The notes below the pieces were generated by a model. The model was not told the DNA's origin and made no database searches. It saw nothing but the letters and a program-made list of their open reading frames with translations. 33,753 nt of DNA, taken from IMG/VR virus record IMGVR_UViG_2579778538_000002, one strand, 5' to 3'. Below, in pieces: positions 23,821 through 30,838 of the stretch (positions are counted from its first letter, which is position 1; every line of letters starts with the position of its first letter). This DNA comes from a virus. Taxonomy: Duplodnaviria; Heunggongvirae; Uroviricota; Caudoviricetes. The translations under genes and the position numbers were made by a program.

Positions 23821-24585
23821 ATGAAAATGCAGACATTACCCATCGTGCCGTGGATTGGTGGCAAACGCCGCCTTGCAAAACACATTCTGCCGCTGTTTCC
23901 GGCGCATGAATGTTATGTGGAGCCGTTTTGTGGGGCAGCAGCGCTCTATTTTCTTAAGACACCCGGCAAGATCGAAGTCATCAATGATATCAACGGTGAA
24001 CTGGTGAATCTGTACCGGGTGGTAAAGCATCACCTGGAAGAATTTGTCCGCCAGTTCAAATGGGCGCTGGTCAGCCGTCAGATCTACAAATGGCTGCAGA
24101 TCACCCCGGAAGAAACACTGACGGATATCCAGCGTGCGGCACGGTTCTACTACCTTCAGAAGCAGGCGTTTGGCGGCAAGGTGGCAGAGCACAGCTTCGG
24201 TACCTCCACCACATCCCCGCCACGCTTCAACCTGCTACGTATTGAAGAAGAACTGTCAGCGGCACACCTGCGGCTTTCCAGAACAGTCATAGAACACATG
24301 GACTGGCAACAGTGCATTGAGCGTTATGATCGTCCGCACACGCTGTTCTACTGCGACCCACCGTACCTGGGTACGGAAGGCTATGGTGTGGATTTTCCTG
24401 AAGGGAACTACTCGCGGCTGGCAGAGCTGGCCCGGTGCATCAGAGGAAAAATGATAATTTCGGTGAACGACATCCCGCAGATGCGCGAGGTGTTCACTGG
24501 ACTGAACATACAGACAGTGAATATCAACTACAGTCTGGCGGGTAAACCCACGCCGCGCCGTGAACTGCTAATCTGCAACTTCTGA
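23821..24585 (+). CDS. DNA N6-adenine methyltransferase, Dam-like (D12 class), orphan
   Basis: N-terminal AdoMet-binding region WIGGKRR...YVEPFCGAAALYF and catalytic motif DPPY (FYCDPPYLGTEGYG) as in E. coli Dam; start set at internal ATG 23821 (MKMQTLPIV...). No restriction endonuclease candidate adjacent. Confidence 0.85.
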   Translation: MKMQTLPIVPWIGGKRRLAKHILPLFPAHECYVEPFCGAAALYFLKTPGKIEVINDINGELVNLYRVVKHHLEEFVRQFKWALVSRQIYKWLQITPEETLTDIQRAARFYYLQKQAFGGKVAEHSFGTSTTSPPRFNLLRIEEELSAAHLRLSRTVIEHMDWQQCIERYDRPHTLFYCDPPYLGTEGYGVDFPEGNYSRLAELARCIRGKMIISVNDIPQMREVFTGLNIQTVNINYSLAGKPTPRRELLICNF

Positions 24586-24616
24586 AACAAAACCGGAAAG
24601 CACAATGCTTTCCGGT
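24581..24616 (-). terminator. candidate intrinsic terminator downstream of the repressor gene (hairpin also abuts the Dam stop)
   Basis: 10-11 bp perfect stem ACCGGAAAGC-ACAAT-GCTTTCCGGT (about 24592-24616), followed on the minus strand by TTTGTTTC; no U-tract on the plus side. Confidence 0.45.
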
Positions 24617-24701
24617 AAACCAAACAACTTCCACTATGTCACTGGCGATGTTTTCTGAAAGCATCCAGATCAACCACCTGTCCTTTGTGTCCGGGTCAGT
24701 A

Positions 24702-25058
24702 TCAGCCTGCGATTTTTCCTGGTTTTGGCTGAGTATAGAATCGCCCAATCTCAAGAAATGAGCGTTGTTGGTCTGGTGTCATGTCGTCAAAAGTATCTAT
24801 TAGTTTTTGTTTTTCTGGGGAAATTTGATTCTGGTTTCTAGTCATACCATCTGTGCTCATTCCAGTGAGCAACCAATTTACATCAACATTAAACTCTTGA
24901 TGCATCTTTAACAGAAACTCCCCTCCAGGCATCGCCTTTCCATTTTCAATCTGACTGATACCACCATTAGAAATACCTAAACGAGCTGCAAATTCTCTCT
25001 GGTTCAACCCTGCTTTCTTCCTCACAGAAATAACGCGCTCTCCTATATCTTTGCTCAT
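24702..25058 (-). CDS. prophage repressor, XRE-family HTH (functional analogue of Mu c)
   Basis: N-terminal helix-turn-helix LNQREFAARLGISNGGISQIENGK; transcribed divergently from the early operon; start codon lies inside an operator half-site. Confidence 0.8.
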   Translation of the reverse strand: MSKDIGERVISVRKKAGLNQREFAARLGISNGGISQIENGKAMPGGEFLLKMHQEFNVDVNWLLTGMSTDGMTRNQNQISPEKQKLIDTFDDMTPDQQRSFLEIGRFYTQPKPGKIAG

Positions 25059-25104
25059 AAAAGTGAATCTCTATCTTGATATGCTCATAATTATGAGCAA
25101 TAAT
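25052..25104. promoter_or_regulatory. operator/early promoter region: perfect 18-bp palindrome TGCTCATAATTATGAGCA (25082-25099) plus a third half-site TGCTCATAA (25052-25060)
   Basis: The palindrome exactly fills the 17-bp spacer between a candidate -35 TTGATA (25076-25081) and -10 AATAAT (25099-25104) pointing into the early operon; the extra half-site overlaps the repressor start codon. Confidence 0.6.
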
Positions 25105-25151
25105 CTAACACATATAAGGCAAACATCATTGCATCAACAAAGGAGACAACG

Positions 25152-25340
25152 ATGACTGCAGAACAAGTCAAAGCTCTCTTCCGCCAGCGCGGGATCACTT
25201 TCACCCGCTGGGCAGAAGAAAACGGCTACAACCGCAATGAGGTATACCGCGTTCTCAACGGGCAGACCAAAGCCCGTTACGGTAAATCCCATGAAATCGC
25301 CGTGAAGTTGGGACTGAAATCAACAGCTCAGGCGGCCTAA
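25152..25340 (+). CDS. small DNA-binding early regulator (Cro/Ner functional analogue)
   Basis: 62 aa, first gene of the early operon, AAGGAG Shine-Dalgarno; HTH-like segment FTRWAEENGYNRNEVYRVLNGQ. Confidence 0.6.
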   Translation: MTAEQVKALFRQRGITFTRWAEENGYNRNEVYRVLNGQTKARYGKSHEIAVKLGLKSTAQAA

Positions 25341-25392
25341 ATATTTTGAGTCTTTGTAAAAGGTTATCACATATCGCAAAAGAGGTATGCAG

Positions 25393-25701
25393 ATGAGTAA
25401 GACGAATGTTTCAAGCTCCGGCAGTCGCATCCTCCGGGTACTCAAAGCGCTGCGCGGTCATGCCCTGAACGGTATTTCTAACGGTGAACTGGCGACAGCA
25501 CTGCACGAGTCACCGGCAAACATCAACCGGGCACTCAACACCCTCATTGAAGAAGGGCTGGCTCTGAAACTGGAGAACGGACGTTTTGCACCGGGCATCC
25601 AGTTACTGCAGATCGCCATGGCCCACAGTAACGAGATGGCACGTGCACAGGATCGTATTAACGAAATTAACCAACGTGTCATTTCAGGTAGTCGTTTGTA
25701 A
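25393..25701 (+). CDS. winged-helix DNA-binding protein (IclR/MarR-like N-terminal HTH)
   Basis: ILRVLKALRGHALNGISNGELATALHESPANINRALNTLIEEGL resembles a winged-helix HTH; start set at ATG 25393 (Shine-Dalgarno AGAGG). Confidence 0.5.
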   Translation: MSKTNVSSSGSRILRVLKALRGHALNGISNGELATALHESPANINRALNTLIEEGLALKLENGRFAPGIQLLQIAMAHSNEMARAQDRINEINQRVISGSRL

Positions 25702-25711
25702 GGAGTAATCA

Positions 25712-26632
25712 ATGGGACGTACCAAATCACCGATTAACACTGAACTGAACGCCGATGTACCGCTGTCGGATGATCTCAACGTCAGCCTGAATGCCATGAC
25801 ACAGCATCGCATGGAGATCATGCAGCAGTTTGGTGATGGACTGCCTTATGAACGTGAACGCATCGTTCACGAAGCACGTTTTTATATGGCGCAGAGTGCT
25901 GAATCTATGTTGGAAGCGGGTAAGCGGCTGATCATCTTAAAAGAAAATGAACCGCATGGTGATTTCACAAATATTCTGGAAAACGACCTCGGATTAGCAC
26001 CACAGGTAGCTCGTCGCATGATGCAGGCCAGCGTGAAATTTCTCGGCAATGGAGATGAACAGCCAAAACGCTCAGCGCTGAGCGTTTTGGGAAAAACCAA
26101 GTTATATGAACTGATGGTTCTGGATGACGAAGAACTCGACGCATTAGCTGATGGTGGAACCGTCGCCGGTGCAACGCTTGATGATATTGATCGCATGACC
26201 AGCCGCGAACTGAAGGCCGCCCTGCGTGAAGCGCGCGAAACCAACGCAGCTCAGCAACAGGTGCTTGCCGGAAAGGACGAAAAAATCAACGAACTGGCCA
26301 CAAAACTGGAGAAGAAATCGCGCCTGCAACCTCCGCCGCCAGACGAAGAACTGAAAAAATTGCGGGCGGAAGTGACGGCATTAGCGGTTGAGGCCGAATC
26401 GGCTATCGCCGTCCGGCTGTCCAGTGTTTTTGAGACCCTGTGTGAATACTGCACCAAAAACATGATCGATACCCCCAGAGATTTCATGGCCGGTCTGGTC
26501 TGCCAGATTGAACGCAGTGTTCATGCATTACGTGAGACGTTTGACCTTGAGGCCGCTCCATCGGGTAACGATGCCCCCGCCTGGCTGACCGAACCGGAAC
26601 CTGAAATCAACCGACCGGAGGATATGCAGTAA
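25712..26632 (+). CDS. hypothetical early protein, coiled-coil with Pro-rich linker
   Basis: 306 aa, between the regulators and the transposase; central heptad-like region and QPPPPDEE linker. Confidence 0.5.
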   Translation: MGRTKSPINTELNADVPLSDDLNVSLNAMTQHRMEIMQQFGDGLPYERERIVHEARFYMAQSAESMLEAGKRLIILKENEPHGDFTNILENDLGLAPQVARRMMQASVKFLGNGDEQPKRSALSVLGKTKLYELMVLDDEELDALADGGTVAGATLDDIDRMTSRELKAALREARETNAAQQQVLAGKDEKINELATKLEKKSRLQPPPPDEELKKLRAEVTALAVEAESAIAVRLSSVFETLCEYCTKNMIDTPRDFMAGLVCQIERSVHALRETFDLEAAPSGNDAPAWLTEPEPEINRPEDMQ

Positions 26633-26949
26633 TGAATACGAATAACACACAAAATACCCTGATGGACAGCCCGGAGGCACTGGGGCACGCACTGTGTAAT
26701 CTGCTGCCGGAGATGGTGCAGGGTTTCCGCGTGGTGACCCCTTCCGGTGAAATCTGCGTACCCGCACAGGAGACGCACCCGTTTGTACTGACGATGGAGG
26801 TGATGCTGATGCAGCAGATAAGACGTCTGCAGAATCAGTCAGCATTACGCCCGGTAGTTGCACCGCAACCGGTAAATACCGTGGTGAAAACCTGCGATGG
26901 CGAAACACTGTGCGACCTCGCCAGAAAAATTGCCGCCAGAATCGGATAA
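26632..26949 (+). CDS. hypothetical early protein (105 aa)
   Basis: ATGA overlap with upstream gene; no recognisable motifs. Confidence 0.45.
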   Translation: MNTNNTQNTLMDSPEALGHALCNLLPEMVQGFRVVTPSGEICVPAQETHPFVLTMEVMLMQQIRRLQNQSALRPVVAPQPVNTVVKTCDGETLCDLARKIAARIG

Positions 26950-26964
26950 CAGGGAAGACAAGCT

Positions 26965-28734
26965 ATGACCCCGGCACTGACTGAAAAACTGGTTGAAACA
27001 GCCCGCGCGGCACGTGACGCGGGGCATGGTAAACGCGGTGCAATATACGACGCTGCCTGTGCTGAACTTGGCATGTCCCGCGCCACTCTGCTGCGCAGGC
27101 TGAAGGAGGTATCTGTGACTGATAAACGCAAAAAACGCGCCGATGCCGGGCGCAGCGCCCTGACCCGCGACGAAGCCGCGCTGATATCTGCCACACTGCG
27201 TGAGGCCACCCGCAAGAACGGTAAGCGTCTCTATTCCATCGCAGATGCAGTGGAAACCCTGCGGGCTAACGGCTTTATCACCGCAGGCAGAACAGATGAA
27301 ACCACCAGTGAGTTTTTCCCGTTGTCTGAAGATGCCATCAGCCGTGCTCTGCGTAACTATGGCCTGCACCCGGAACAACTGGATGCCCCTGCACCACATA
27401 CCGAAGTGGCCAGTCTGCATCCCAATCATGTCTGGCAGATTGACGCCTCACTCTGCACGCTTTACTACCTGAGCAATGGACATAAAGGGCTGCAGGTGAT
27501 GGACAGCGCGAAGTTCTACAAGAACAAGCCCGCTAACCTTGCCCGTATCGCCAGTGACCGCGTGTGGAGTTACGAGATTACCGACCATGCCAGCGGCTGG
27601 ATTTACGTTGAGTATGTGACGGGCGCGGAATCAGGTGAGAACCTGTGTTCTGTGCTTATCAACGCCATGCAGGAGCGTGGCGGCGCAGACGTGCTGCACG
27701 GCGTGCCGAAAATACTCTATCTCGACCCCGGCTCGGCAAACACCGCGGGTATGACGAAAAACATGTGCCGCTCACTGGGCATCGACCTGATAGCGCACAA
27801 GCCGCATAACGCCCGCGCCACCGGACAGGTGGAAAAGGCGCGTGACATTATCGAACGCAAGCTGGAGCCGGGTCTGAAGTTCCGGCCGGTTCACAGTCTG
27901 GAAGAACTCAACGCGCTGGCCGCGAAATGGCGCAGCCACTTTAACGCCACGGCTGTTCACAGCCGCCACGGTAAAACCCGCACGGATATCTGGCTGAAGA
28001 TTACTGCTGAGCAGCTGAAAAAAGCGCCTTCCGTTGAGGTATGTCGTGAACTGGCTGTGGCGGCACCAGAACTCCGCAAAGTCACGCCAAAACTTCGTGT
28101 CTCGTTCCGGGGCACTGAATTTGACGTATCAACGGTACCGGGCGTACTGGTTGGTGAAAAACTGATGATTACCCGTAACCCATGGCGCAGCGATGTGGCA
28201 CAGGTGGTTCTGACCGGTGAGGACGGCCACGAGACGTTCTTCCTGGTCGAAGAGGTCAGAAAGAACGAGTTTGGCTTTGCTGAAGGCGCGGCGGTATTTG
28301 GCGAAAGTTACAAAGCCCTGCCGGAAACCCCGGCACAGATGGCGGCAAAAGAAACCGAAGCGCTGGTTACCGGTACAGACAACGCCGCAGATGCAGCCGC
28401 CGCACGCAAGGCGAAGGCGCTGCCGTTCGGCGGGCGGCTTGACCCGTATAAACATATCGACGACACCACACTTCCGGCCTATATGCCGAAGCGTGGTCAG
28501 GCCTCTGACGTACGCGGGCCGCGCACTGAACAACGTCCCATGACTCATGTGGAGGCCGCGAAAGCCCTGCGCGATAAGTTCAGCGCCGACGGCCTTACCT
28601 GGACGCCGGAACATTACCGCCAGTTAACGGCACAGTACCCGGACGGCGTACCGGAAGCCGCACTGGATGAAGTCATGGCCACGCTGACCACACCGGCCCG
28701 CAGCAGTGTTATCAGCATTGTTAACGGCAACTGA
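26965..28734 (+). CDS. DDE transposase (Mu A-type, short B3/D3112-like form)
   Basis: 589 aa; N-terminal HTH region, then DDE core with candidate catalytic residues in HVWQIDAS, YLDPGSAN and TGQVEKAR; followed by the AAA+ B-type gene as in transposable phages. Confidence 0.85.
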   Translation: MTPALTEKLVETARAARDAGHGKRGAIYDAACAELGMSRATLLRRLKEVSVTDKRKKRADAGRSALTRDEAALISATLREATRKNGKRLYSIADAVETLRANGFITAGRTDETTSEFFPLSEDAISRALRNYGLHPEQLDAPAPHTEVASLHPNHVWQIDASLCTLYYLSNGHKGLQVMDSAKFYKNKPANLARIASDRVWSYEITDHASGWIYVEYVTGAESGENLCSVLINAMQERGGADVLHGVPKILYLDPGSANTAGMTKNMCRSLGIDLIAHKPHNARATGQVEKARDIIERKLEPGLKFRPVHSLEELNALAAKWRSHFNATAVHSRHGKTRTDIWLKITAEQLKKAPSVEVCRELAVAAPELRKVTPKLRVSFRGTEFDVSTVPGVLVGEKLMITRNPWRSDVAQVVLTGEDGHETFFLVEEVRKNEFGFAEGAAVFGESYKALPETPAQMAAKETEALVTGTDNAADAAAARKAKALPFGGRLDPYKHIDDTTLPAYMPKRGQASDVRGPRTEQRPMTHVEAAKALRDKFSADGLTWTPEHYRQLTAQYPDGVPEAALDEVMATLTTPARSSVISIVNGN

Positions 28735-28744
28735 GGAGGGAAAC

Positions 28745-29911
28745 ATGCTGGTACTGAAGCAGCAACTGAAAGAGGCCCGTATTCCACAGGCGGTGGTGGC
28801 GAGAGCTGTCGATGTTTCTGAGGCCACGCTGGCCCAGATTGTGAATCATAACGCGTGGCCCCGCACCAGCCCCGGAGAAGTGCGCCGGCGTCTTGCGTCC
28901 TGGCTGGAAAGTCAGGGGATTGATACAACGAAGAGTTTTGATGCTGTACAGGGCGCGGCCACGCCCCGTACAGCGGGTACCACAGATAAAACGAGCCTCA
29001 GTGAGGAAGAGAATATGTTACTCAAAAAACAGGTGTTATTTCCAGCAACCAAAAAAGCGTTTGGTCTTTTCCGTGACCCGTTCGCCGACGAAGCCATGCA
29101 GGGTTCTGATGATGTGTTCACCACCCCGGACATTCGCTACGTGCGTGAGGCGCTGTACCAGACAGCCCGTCATGGTGGGTTTATGGCCGTCATCGGTGAG
29201 TCCGGTGCGGGTAAATCCACGCTGCGCCGCGACCTGACTGAACGTATCAACCGCGAGAATGCGCCGGTAATTGTTATCGAGCCATACATCATCGCTATGG
29301 AAGACAACGATGTGAAAGGGAAAACCCTGAAGGCAGCAGCTATTGCCGAAGCCATTATCAGTACCATCGCACCACTGGAAAGCATCAGACGCAGTCAGGA
29401 CGCCCGTTTTCGCCAGTTGCATCGCGTCCTGAAAGACAGCAGCCAGGCGGGGTTCAGCCACGTTCTGGTGATTGAGGAGGCCCACAGTCTGCCCATTCCG
29501 ACACTGAAACACCTCAAACGCTTTTTTGAGCTGGAGTCCGGTTTCAAAAAACTGCTGTCCATCGTGCTGATTGGCCAGCCGGAACTGGCGACAAAACTGT
29601 CTGAACGCAATATGGAAGTCCGTGAAGTCGTTCAGCGCTGTGAGGTGGTCGAACTTCTGCCTCTGGACAATAACCTTGAAGAATTTCTGACGTTCAAACT
29701 GCAACGGGCCGGTAAACAGCTGACGGACATTATGGACGCCGGTGCAGTGGATGCCATACGTGCCCGCCTGAGCAATCCGGGAAGTCACCGTAAAAATATG
29801 GTCAGCCTGCTGTATCCGCTGGCCGTCAGTAACCTGGTAATAGCCGCCATGAATCTGGCCGCTGAAATCGGGGTTCCACAGGTCAACGCTGACGTTGTCA
29901 AAGGGGTTTAA
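28745..29911 (+). CDS. DNA transposition ATPase (Mu B-like AAA+ protein)
   Basis: Walker A GESGAGKST, Walker B-like HVLVIEEAH; start set at ATG 28745 after GAGGAGGG; immediately downstream of the transposase. Confidence 0.8.
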   Translation: MLVLKQQLKEARIPQAVVARAVDVSEATLAQIVNHNAWPRTSPGEVRRRLASWLESQGIDTTKSFDAVQGAATPRTAGTTDKTSLSEEENMLLKKQVLFPATKKAFGLFRDPFADEAMQGSDDVFTTPDIRYVREALYQTARHGGFMAVIGESGAGKSTLRRDLTERINRENAPVIVIEPYIIAMEDNDVKGKTLKAAAIAEAIISTIAPLESIRRSQDARFRQLHRVLKDSSQAGFSHVLVIEEAHSLPIPTLKHLKRFFELESGFKKLLSIVLIGQPELATKLSERNMEVREVVQRCEVVELLPLDNNLEEFLTFKLQRAGKQLTDIMDAGAVDAIRARLSNPGSHRKNMVSLLYPLAVSNLVIAAMNLAAEIGVPQVNADVVKGV

Positions 29912-29913
29912 TA

Positions 29914-30183
29914 ATGAAATCCACCACAGGTATCAACCAGCAAATCAGCAAAGTGCAGTCAGCCATTATGGCGCTTAAGGCGACGAACACGGATGTACAA
30001 AGCATCACCATCAGGGGTAACAAACCTGTCATCCGCGTTTCCCGGAGTGCGCATTGCATGCGCATGCTTGAGCAGGGAAAGGCCTGTTATCTGTATACCG
30101 GACATGACCACAGGGGATATTTCCGTCAGGGCGTTTTCGAACTGCACGGCTGTCGCGTCGTGTGGCCGGAATCTTTGTGGTAA
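29914..30183 (+). CDS. hypothetical early protein (89 aa)
   Basis: Tightly packed after B; no recognisable motifs. Confidence 0.45.
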   Translation: MKSTTGINQQISKVQSAIMALKATNTDVQSITIRGNKPVIRVSRSAHCMRMLEQGKACYLYTGHDHRGYFRQGVFELHGCRVVWPESLW

Positions 30184-30210
30184 TCAGCACAACTGGAGAA
30201 ATCATAAAAA

Positions 30211-30741
30211 ATGGCAAAAAGTACAAAAGGTGCAAAACGTATCAAGGCCGCAGCAGCACTCTGGGTGCCGGGGACACGTGAAGAGGTCATTGAGGGAATC
30301 AGACTACTCGGTGACGCACAACGTGAACTGGTCAGGGCTGAAACAGAAATGAATGACGCCATTGGCGATATCACCGCACGTTATGCCCCGCTCACCGAGA
30401 GCCTGAAAAAACGCATGGCCGAACTGCAGTCCGGTATTCAGACATGGTGTGAGGCACACCGTGATGAACTGACCGGCAACGGGAAGGTGAAGTTCGCTAA
30501 CCTCACCACCGGCGAGGTGCAGTGGCGAAACCGTCCGCCATCAGTCAGTATCCGTGGGGCGGATAATGTTATTGAATTACTGAGACGTCTGGGGCTTGAG
30601 CGCTTTATTCGTGTAAAAGAGGAAATAAATAAAGACGCTATCCTGAATGAAAAAGAGGCCGTGAAAAATATTCCCGGTATTTCCATTAAAAGCGACATTG
30701 AGGATTTTTCAATAATTCCTTTTGAGCAGGATGTGCAGTAA
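30211..30741 (+). CDS. gam: host-nuclease inhibitor protein Gam (Mu Gam-like, Ku-like DNA end binding)
   Basis: 176 aa; near-colinear with phage Mu Gam as I recall it (MAK..KRIK.AAA...RLETEMNDAI...WCEA.RDELT..GKVK.ANL.TG.V.WR.RPPSVSIRG...ERLGL.RFIR.K.EINK.AIL...IEDFSIIPFEQ). Confidence 0.9.
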   Translation: MAKSTKGAKRIKAAAALWVPGTREEVIEGIRLLGDAQRELVRAETEMNDAIGDITARYAPLTESLKKRMAELQSGIQTWCEAHRDELTGNGKVKFANLTTGEVQWRNRPPSVSIRGADNVIELLRRLGLERFIRVKEEINKDAILNEKEAVKNIPGISIKSDIEDFSIIPFEQDVQ

Positions 30742-30838
30742 ACACACCACGTTAATTATTTAATAAAAACATTTTCTTTTTTATTCCGACGTCAGCGCCG
30801 CGGGCTTCTGCACGCCGGAAACAGAGGAGAATTAAATC

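Follow-up and report, generated by a model that had tools for sequence, protein, structure and literature searches.

The window analysed here is a stretch of DNA of 33,753 nucleotides (nt), IMG/VR record IMGVR_UViG_2579778538_000002 (Caudoviricetes), and all coordinates below are window positions. Judged by its sequence, it is a BcepMu/B3-type transposable prophage of Escherichia coli with a Tn552-related transposase. Three open reading frames (ORFs) lie consecutively on the + strand at the head of the early operon, between a gene for a small Ner/Cro-like helix-turn-helix (HTH) protein and the transposase gene. They encode a winged-helix protein of 102-104 amino acids (aa) (25393-25701), a 306-aa DUF3102 protein (25712-26632) and a 105-aa ORFan (26632-26949). 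Matches to PHROG families (phrog_1368, 5e-45; phrog_1748, 1e-143; phrog_5446, 1e-73, in that order) cover all three nearly end to end. Thus these are genuine genes, and the ORF list and PHROG matches bear out a first-pass annotation of this DNA that had placed three genes here. The main subject is the DUF3102 gene, which has a perfect palindrome within its own coding sequence.

The palindrome, CCAAAACGCTCAGC/GCTGAGCGTTTTGG, was found by an inverted repeat scan and lies at 26063-26090, in codons 118-127 of the DUF3102 gene. It is 28 base pairs (bp) long, consists of 14+14 nt with no spacer, and represents the allele with arginine at residue 101 (R101), with the core ACGCTCA. Occurring once, it is the window's longest perfect inverted repeat; by the author's estimate, about 1e-4 such palindromes are expected by chance in DNA of this size. 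The complete genomes of BcepMu and B3 have homologous palindromes of 30 bp (TTCAAAAGCGGCGTT/AACGCCGCTTTTGAA) and 26 bp (CAAAACGGACAAC/GTTGTCCGTTTTG) at the same codon, each also the longest in its genome and single-copy. At the same codons, other alleles display sequences that are different yet palindromic: CCAAATGTGCCAGC/GCTGGCACATTTGG, AAAAGCGACAAC/GTTGTCGCTTTT and CAAAAGTCCCAGC/GCTGGGACTTTTG. The outer flanks of the site, CAAA(A/T)...(A/T)TTTG, are conserved. No extra half-site copies beyond chance were detected in the window, BcepMu or B3, ends included, and nothing like the half-site is seen at the right prophage end.

A sample of 259 loci from IMG/VR and reference phages, with 175 unique DUF3102 genes, was used to follow the palindrome, which was called where at least 11 of 13 pairs are complementary within 75 nt of the homologous centre. 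It is present in 131 of the 175 genes, exactly in register in 124 and perfect in 72. Elsewhere in the same loci, used as a control, the corresponding figures are 47/3228 (at least 11 pairs) and 1/3228 (perfect), and the in-gene palindrome is the best of the whole locus in 129 of the 131. There are 32 distinct 7-nt palindrome cores. Pairs were counted in 104 sequences, which had been chosen for having the element at the homologous position. Paired cells amount to 92.2%, compared to 68.3% after shuffling (0 of 500 shuffles reach the observed value) and 35-42% with the partner slid. Double-sided changes are found at 10 of the 13 pairs, in 292 cells where 85 are expected. The dyad symmetry is kept by compensatory changes while the sequence varies between phages.

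Compensatory changes are also the classic signature of a stem, and the palindrome may be considered as a nucleic-acid structure that acts without a protein, either as a messenger RNA hairpin (an attenuator, a weak bidirectional terminator, a stabiliser or a processing site) or as a DNA cruciform. The predicted RNA hairpin has a 12-bp stem, a dG (folding free energy) of -23.2 kcal/mol and a z of -3.35, and its A-rich and T-rich flanks are like those of a bidirectional terminator. However the terminator scan does not call the palindrome, and 3-4 T follow the stem. Mismatch lineages display about 17 G.T and 12 A.C (read by eye, no computed tally), with no clear G.U bias on the sense strand. In addition, the central bases stay self-complementary in the window/B3 clade, which would be unneeded in a hairpin loop. 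An intrinsic terminator, i.e., a G+C-rich stem and at least five T, was also looked for at the palindrome; the sequence that follows is TTTTGGG, its T are within the arm, and the scan was negative.

The protein encoded by the gene matches DUF3102 (PF11300) over residues 65-173, with 27.0 bits against a cut-off of 24.4. BcepMu gp10, B3 ORF13 and phiE255 gp41 are homologues. An AlphaFold2 model with a pLDDT (predicted local distance difference test score) of 89.5 displays a helical HTH domain at the N-terminus, then a long coiled-coil hairpin with antiparallel helices, and lastly a C-terminal tail. The predicted HTH is formed by the model helices of residues 82-92 and 97-111 (25955-26044, +). 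The second of these is the predicted recognition helix, PQVARRMMQASVKFL, and mutual information marks R101 (26012-26014, +) as its putative specificity residue.

When alleles are sorted by palindrome core, each core is paired with its own recognition-helix sequence. The highest mutual information with half-site bases is found for residues 97, 98, 101 and 102, which are positions 1, 2, 5 and 6 of helix 97-111. These helix positions are the canonical base-contacting pattern of HTH proteins. Residue 101 tracks half-site positions 8-7 in two clades, whereby R goes with CG, Q with GC, and small residues with GT or TT. The window/B3 clade has R-CG 16 times, Q-GC 22 times (and Q-AC twice) and V/H-GT five times; the BcepMu clade has R-CG three times, Q-GC 19 times and A/S/V/H-GT/TT 15 times. 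The mutual information is 1.6 bits per clade, a value reached by 0 of 5000 shuffles. The two clades are 39% identical and retain clade-typical residues between helix and site, and thus a transfer of the cassette between clades cannot explain why the rule agrees.

Clades without an in-gene site have a palindrome of the same family elsewhere, either just upstream of the DUF3102 start (loci L064, L065 and L180) or within the repressor gene at a distance of about 3 kb (L224, L221, L235, L215, L167, L203 and L228). In L220, L250 and L252 the upstream palindrome is a second copy, and a weaker in-gene site is retained. Residue 101 predicts positions 8-7 of the relocated or extra-copy sites in 13 of the 14 loci tabulated, and at several relocated sites the whole helix/core pair is identical to the in-gene pair of other phages. 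Microcystis phage Mae-JY22 (L262) has three identical palindromes, CCAAAACGGGCGGC/GCCGCCCGTTTTGG, at 2382, 2427 and 5305, which obey the rule. One is in the DUF3102 gene, and the other two, spaced by 45 bp, belong to the leftward operon about 2.9 kb upstream, an arrangement that would allow DNA looping around the immunity region.

A nucleic-acid structure leaves unexplained how bases 8-7 can be predicted, in two distant clades and at sites relocated by 3 kb, from residue 101 of a helix whose codons are some 50 nt upstream. The element is also seen to shift into other genes and into the opposite transcription unit. Structure without a protein is thus highly improbable, and an RNA hairpin or terminator as sole explanation was rejected on the residue-101 rule and the relocated sites.

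As a separate observation, three pairs of co-resident prophages (L013/L036, L068/L118 and L152/L224) have different helix/palindrome alleles, and a fourth (L215/L216) is an identical duplicate; the sample of four pairs is small.

Another protein might bind the palindrome, with DUF3102 merely hosting the site; candidates are the winged-helix protein, the transposase or a host factor. The winged-helix gene is a constant neighbour, and the outer flanks of the site are conserved, as are the winged-helix protein and the transposase. However, the core changes completely among enterobacterial loci in which identity is 89-99% for the winged-helix protein and 93-99% for the transposase; being near-invariant where the site changes, neither protein is a good candidate reader of the core. 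It is the DUF3102 helix that the core tracks, and a host factor cannot explain 32 cores within single host species. Binding by one of these other proteins is very unlikely, but the winged-helix protein may read the conserved flanks as part of a joint complex.

On the strength of this covariation, the DUF3102 protein is very probably a dimeric HTH protein that binds 26063-26090, with residue 101 reading base pairs 7-8 of each half-site. The first-pass annotation had seen a DNA-binding protein in this gene group, which holds for the winged-helix protein; it had missed that the coiled-coil DUF3102 protein is also a likely sequence-specific binder, and that the putative site of this protein is within its own gene.

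The HTH and the site are variable in an otherwise conserved region. In enterobacterial relatives the Ner, winged-helix, transposase and ATPase proteins can be 98-100% identical, with DUF3102 down to 76%. The divergence of DUF3102 is concentrated in residues 85-135, a hypervariable stretch, and the segment with HTH and site is the most divergent part of an early region that is otherwise 98-100% identical. The HTH/site allele assorts independently of the repressor and ner alleles, and is thus a specificity module in its own right, outside immunity.

The antiparallel coiled-coil hairpin comprises residues 164-249 (26201-26458, +), with helices 164-205 and 210-249 modelled at pLDDT >93. The first-pass annotation had described a coiled coil with a poly-Pro linker. 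The coiled coil is present in the model, but P207-P210 (26330-26341, +) is placed at the tip of the hairpin, and the PPPP is therefore a turn and not a flexible linker. In the C-terminal tail (pLDDT 59-71) P289 and W291 are the sole residues conserved family-wide, and the alignment consensus P289-A290-W291 (26576-26584, +) is a candidate docking motif. The model suggests that the antiparallel coiled coil of about 40 residues and the P289-x-W291 tail serve in partner docking. Sequence searches of solved structures gave nothing significant for the three proteins or the DUF3102 profile, a BFVD search returned uncharacterised DUF3102 proteins only, and NCBIfam and PADLOC gave no meaningful matches for the three proteins. 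The DUF3102 family has 1585 cluster representatives at E<=1e-3 (50% clustering). Six proteins of 434-545 aa (P0180, P0190, P0194, P0236, P0237 and P0246) have the DUF3102 region in the C-terminal half, and their N-terminal 150-280 residues have no Pfam match.

The winged-helix and DUF3102 genes form a conserved pair. Of the unique loci that could be evaluated, 169 of 171 have a winged-helix homologue at most 700 nt upstream of DUF3102, and 156 of 157 have a transposase at most 900 nt downstream; the median intergenic gaps are about 20 nt. In BcepMu the order is gp16 (Ner-like), gp13, gp12 (winged helix), gp11, gp10 (DUF3102), gp9 (transposase) and gp8 (ATPase), and in B3 it is ORF17, 16, 15, 14 (winged helix), 13 (DUF3102), 12 and 11. 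The gene plan of phiE255 (gp42/gp41), phage Bise and Mae-JY22 is as in BcepMu and B3. BcepMu gp12/gp10, B3 ORF14/ORF13 and phiE255 gp42/gp41 are direct homologues of the window pair (winged-helix 33-56%, DUF3102 39-56% identity) and occupy the same slot upstream of transposase and ATPase. The window differs from BcepMu and B3 in having the 105-aa gene and in lacking the CII-like gene (BcepMu gp13, B3 ORF15) and gp11. In Burkholderia, Pseudomonas and Enterobacteriaceae alike the pair is conserved in presence, order and spacing, even where identity falls to 39%. By this comparison of sequences, the pair upstream of the transposase is ancestral and nearly universal in the BcepMu/B3 group.

In Mu, ner directly precedes A, and the first-pass annotation had taken Mu as its comparison and had regarded the three genes as extra insertions before the transposase. 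Mu is the wrong reference, since the transposase and layout are of the Tn552-related BcepMu/B3 type. With the winged-helix gene upstream of DUF3102 in 169/171 loci and the transposase downstream in 156/157, the winged-helix and DUF3102 genes are not insertions; only the 105-aa gene is a true lineage-specific addition. What looks like extra genes by comparison with Mu is ordinary, i.e., a known phage-group layout with one ORFan. The annotation had also named universal presence with a function already assigned as the finding that would tell against it; the presence applies to two of the genes, and a function is assigned in no searched source. Its suggestion that a gene at the head of the early operon has an accessory or regulatory role is reasonable.

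The three genes might also be dispensable cargo (morons or anti-defence genes) with no role in transposition or its control. The 105-aa gene fits this description, with its narrow distribution, variable slot and no detectable domains, and other small ORFs or gaps are found in nearby slots elsewhere, e.g., BcepMu gp11, L050, L063 and L067. But the presence, order and spacing of the winged-helix and DUF3102 genes are conserved down to 39% identity, a co-evolving cis site argues for a core function, and PADLOC gave no credible defence-system matches. Cargo as an account of all three genes is unlikely.

The homologues in BcepMu, B3 and phiE255 are annotated merely as conserved hypothetical proteins or 'transcriptional regulator'. 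No function for any of the three genes is assigned in the literature searched, which leaves aside the B3 genome paper, Summer 2004 (BcepMu) and Toussaint and Van Gijsegem 2017, and there the term 'DUF3102' occurs in unrelated contexts only. Neither the inverted repeat nor the recognition rule is described in the literature searched, though one of these three papers may mention the inverted repeat. What appears new in the sequences is a DUF3102 protein with a deducible site, a recognition rule and many natural specificities.

DUF3102 genes are also found on Lactobacillales plasmids (L266, L267 and L268; 27% identity), where they adjoin rep and prgP. These genes and the IMG/VR contig L269 have a palindrome at the homologous codon, with the flanks AAAT...ATTT. 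The Firmicutes-type palindromes are CCAAATCAGTACTC/GAGTACTGATTTGG and GGAAATGAGTGGAC/GTCCACTCATTTGG. A plasmid gene and a viral contig that are 51% identical have palindromes that differ by compensatory changes. The Firmicutes sample was widened by genome and viral scans, with one extra locus from each. The design of a site at a fixed codon of the protein's own gene is shared by Lactobacillales plasmids and phages, and it is thus ancient and general. Since the Firmicutes homologues carry the site with no transposase nearby, the ancestral role is not transposition-specific, and the output of the design may differ between elements.

For the window, the sequence data are best accounted for by a conserved BcepMu/B3 early-operon head in which a DUF3102 dimer would bind the palindrome in its own gene and provide an enhancer-like cis mark; as a whole, this reading is probable, with moderate confidence. 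The dimer would bind a single site per genome (three genomes were checked). The site lies beside the recognition-helix codons, about 50 nt apart, and protein and site would be inherited together as one specificity cassette. The bound dimer would be a cis-acting architectural mark on the phage genome, whose coiled coil and P-x-W tail would help to bring in or arrange the transposase/ATPase machinery or the immunity-early region. This last part, an enhancer-like mark that organises transposition or the early region, is put forward tentatively. Sites are found in the own gene, in front of the gene or in the repressor gene, and never in a promoter. Such positions would be equivalent for a position-tolerant architectural element and would have opposite effects under a transcription block, which favours an architectural role. 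An enhancer-like role is further favoured because the gene is so tightly linked to the transposase gene, because a 28% identical relative precedes the D3112-like transposase of KS10 (PMC2628397), because B3/Tn552-type transposases are without the Mu enhancer-binding domain, to date seemingly Mu-specific (PMC8705779), and because of the coiled coil and P-x-W tail.

The reading that ranks next is that the DUF3102 protein binds the palindrome as a transcriptional governor, which blocks or loops RNA polymerase and feeds back on its own gene and on the transposase and ATPase genes; in clades whose site is within the repressor gene, it is repressor expression that would be reduced. The early operon begins with a cluster of regulator genes (Ner-like, CII-like in B3 and BcepMu, winged-helix), to which this gene belongs, and all sites found are in transcribed regions, none in a promoter. 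The Mae-JY22 sites flank the immunity region, which suits looping, and autoregulation would explain why plasmid homologues that have no transposase retain the in-gene site. However the effect would flip between clades, in that lytic genes would be damped in some and the repressor in others, which is odd for a conserved regulator. A mid-operon block would also reduce the downstream genes gam, gemA and mor, and the promoter scan calls no promoter-like site beside the palindrome. A governor that acts by roadblock or looping is therefore possible but doubtful.

The enhancer-like role has a parallel in Mu. The Mu transposition enhancer (the internal activation sequence, IAS, which overlaps operators O1-O2) is read by the N-terminal domain of MuA, with a specificity that differs between Mu and D108. 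Its role is summarised in PMC5977238. Common to both would be a single cis site in the immunity/early region, a small HTH-type reader domain and a specificity that varies among relatives. The window site is about 1 kb from the operators, and in other clades it is inside the repressor gene or next to the DUF3102 start. In contrast to Mu, where the reader is a domain of the transposase, the reader in the window would be a separate protein. The window site is also a perfect palindrome in coding sequence and not in the operator region, and its effect on transposition is putative, by analogy. A Mu-type reading of the site by the transposase N-terminus was considered and rejected: the transposase is 93-99% conserved while the site varies, and the domain is missing (PMC8705779).

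A ParB/KorB-type identity was likewise rejected, as searches of Pfam and NCBIfam gave no match to the N-terminal domain of ParB, which binds and hydrolyses cytidine triphosphate (CTP). The palindromic putative cognate site in or near the own gene is a likeness to ParB/KorB; the long coiled-coil hairpin, however, is not a ParB feature and sets DUF3102 apart from HTH proteins of the ParB/KorB/VirB/StbA type. A site within the gene of its own reader is known from the lambda ori in gene O, parS in Bacillus subtilis spo0J and pac in small-terminase genes. By analogy with lambda O/ori, spo0J/parS and terS/pac, the DUF3102 protein and its site would be inherited and diverge together. The protein families are unrelated, and the known systems use iterons or short sites, whereas DUF3102 has one perfect dyad of 26-30 bp at a fixed codon, from Firmicutes plasmids to proteobacterial phages.

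Several points weigh against a DUF3102 dimer as an enhancer-like mark. Covariation is the only evidence for binding, and the shuffling tests are without correction for shared ancestry, the main safeguard being the agreement across clades and at relocated sites. In the available DNA, a site could not be detected for some members, namely KS10 gp15, phage Bise and several metagenomic loci (a few only). Firmicutes plasmid homologues keep the in-gene palindrome with no adjoining transposase, and the R/Q rule fails in the Firmicutes homologues. The weakest step is the purpose that the binding would serve, and a physical link of the protein to the transposase, the ATPase or the winged-helix protein is putative.

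DUF3102 and its palindrome could represent the missing 'enhancer' of Tn552-type phages, as a separate subunit with dozens of pairs and a preference in cis, and the family as a whole could consist of self-marking proteins. This wider proposal is speculative. If true, the diversified specificity would let transposition functions act preferentially in cis on the cognate genome, and DUF3102 would be a self-marking DNA-binding family of mobile elements, from Lactobacillales plasmids to proteobacterial phages. The proposal bears on how B3/BcepMu-type phages manage without the MuA enhancer-binding domain. A large family hitherto without a known function becomes testable, with a site, a recognition helix, a one-residue rule and about 32 natural protein/site pairs. 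Naturally orthogonal HTH/operator pairs are also possible genetic parts.

The winged-helix protein, identified as such in the first-pass annotation, is above the Pfam cut-off for HTH_IclR (26.0 bits against 22, residues 14-59; 7.9e-6) and HTH_24 (4.3e-5). It has the IclR/MarR-type HTH alone, and the C-terminal IclR effector domain of about 170 aa has no match in this protein of 102-104 aa. The 'IclR family' label in the record of Escherichia phage PhiKM thus overstates; it is true of the HTH only. A start at 25393 is more likely than the alternative at 25387, because AAGAGG at 25380-25385 is 7 nt upstream of 25393 and both RefSeq and GenBank annotate 25393. The protein probably acts together with DUF3102. 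A 16-nt inverted repeat with 15/16 matches connects 24962-24977 and 25471-25486, where the repressor gene (-) and the winged-helix gene (+) both encode G-I-S-N-G in the HTH from near-identical DNA. Chance may account for this, or the two genes may once have recombined.

The 105-aa gene is restricted to the PhiKM sublineage and a few close relatives. It is absent from KP12, BcepMu, B3 and most loci, and where it is absent about 19 bp separate the DUF3102 stop from the transposase start. A search of 5.8e9 proteins gave 11 clusters of its family, with E. coli and Salmonella as their only sources, and the gene is found in 410 of 5426 E. coli genomes, with a ratio of nonsynonymous to synonymous substitution rates (dN/dS) of 0.3-0.6. 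Pfam, NCBIfam and a sequence search of solved structures revealed no domain or structural relative. By its distribution it is a recent, narrowly distributed lineage-specific addition. Its start, behind GGAGGA, overlaps the DUF3102 stop (TAATG), and this overlap suggests that the two genes are translationally coupled. The gene is always paired with a variant of the last ~40 residues of DUF3102, IERSVHALRETFDLEAAPSG... and not LESTARSLRSTFDLPDEPTG... (26510-26632; L021, L022 and L024). The recombination joint therefore lies inside DUF3102, and the two products might interact.

The surrounding region is typical of the phage group. The part of the window used as query, 24600-30800, is 100% identical to PhiKM, classed as Bcepmuvirus in its GenBank record, and the same region is found in 644 of 5426 complete E. 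coli genomes (~12%). The first early operon gene (25152-25340, +; phrog_925, 3.8e-33) encodes the 62-aa Ner/Cro-like protein and is homologous to BcepMu gp16 and B3 ORF17. The 589-aa Tn552-related DDE (rve) transposase (26965-28734, +; rve 9.8e-9; phrog_310, 4e-147) is followed by an AAA+ (AAA_22/ExeA-like) transposition ATPase, the MuB analogue (28745-29911, +, start per RefSeq; AAA_22 3.8e-20; phrog_296, 5.5e-93). Identity to the B3 and BcepMu proteins is 56-69% for the transposase and 54-59% for the ATPase. The repressor and Ner-like genes are divergent, the early operon ends in Gam, GemA and Mor, and the late genes are on the opposite strand.

The immunity repressor gene (24702-25058, -) encodes an HTH_3/CI-like protein (Pfam HTH_3, 4.6e-15; Phage_CI_repr; phrog_8/4). 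A promoter scan places the predicted early promoter at 25076-25104 (+), with a 10/12 match. An 18-bp perfect palindrome, TGCTCATAATTATGAGCA, at 25082-25099 overlaps the -10 of this promoter, and partial copies related to it are found at 25047-25066 and 24854-24871, one within the repressor gene. The palindrome and its partial copies are likely repressor/Ner operators. A perfect hairpin with 11-bp arms, ACCGGAAAGCA/TGCTTTCCGGT, is present at 24592-24616, where a DNA adenine methylase gene (ending at 24585, +) and the repressor gene (ending at 24702, -) converge, and on the minus strand it is followed by a T-run. Probably it terminates the repressor transcript, or else transcription in both directions.

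In E. coli NZ_CP076697, NZ_CP141079, NZ_CP196276 and NZ_CM192147 the early region of the prophage is interrupted by IS1, ISEc23, or ISEcp1 with blaCTX-M-15. Thus the prophage serves as a landing pad for resistance elements.

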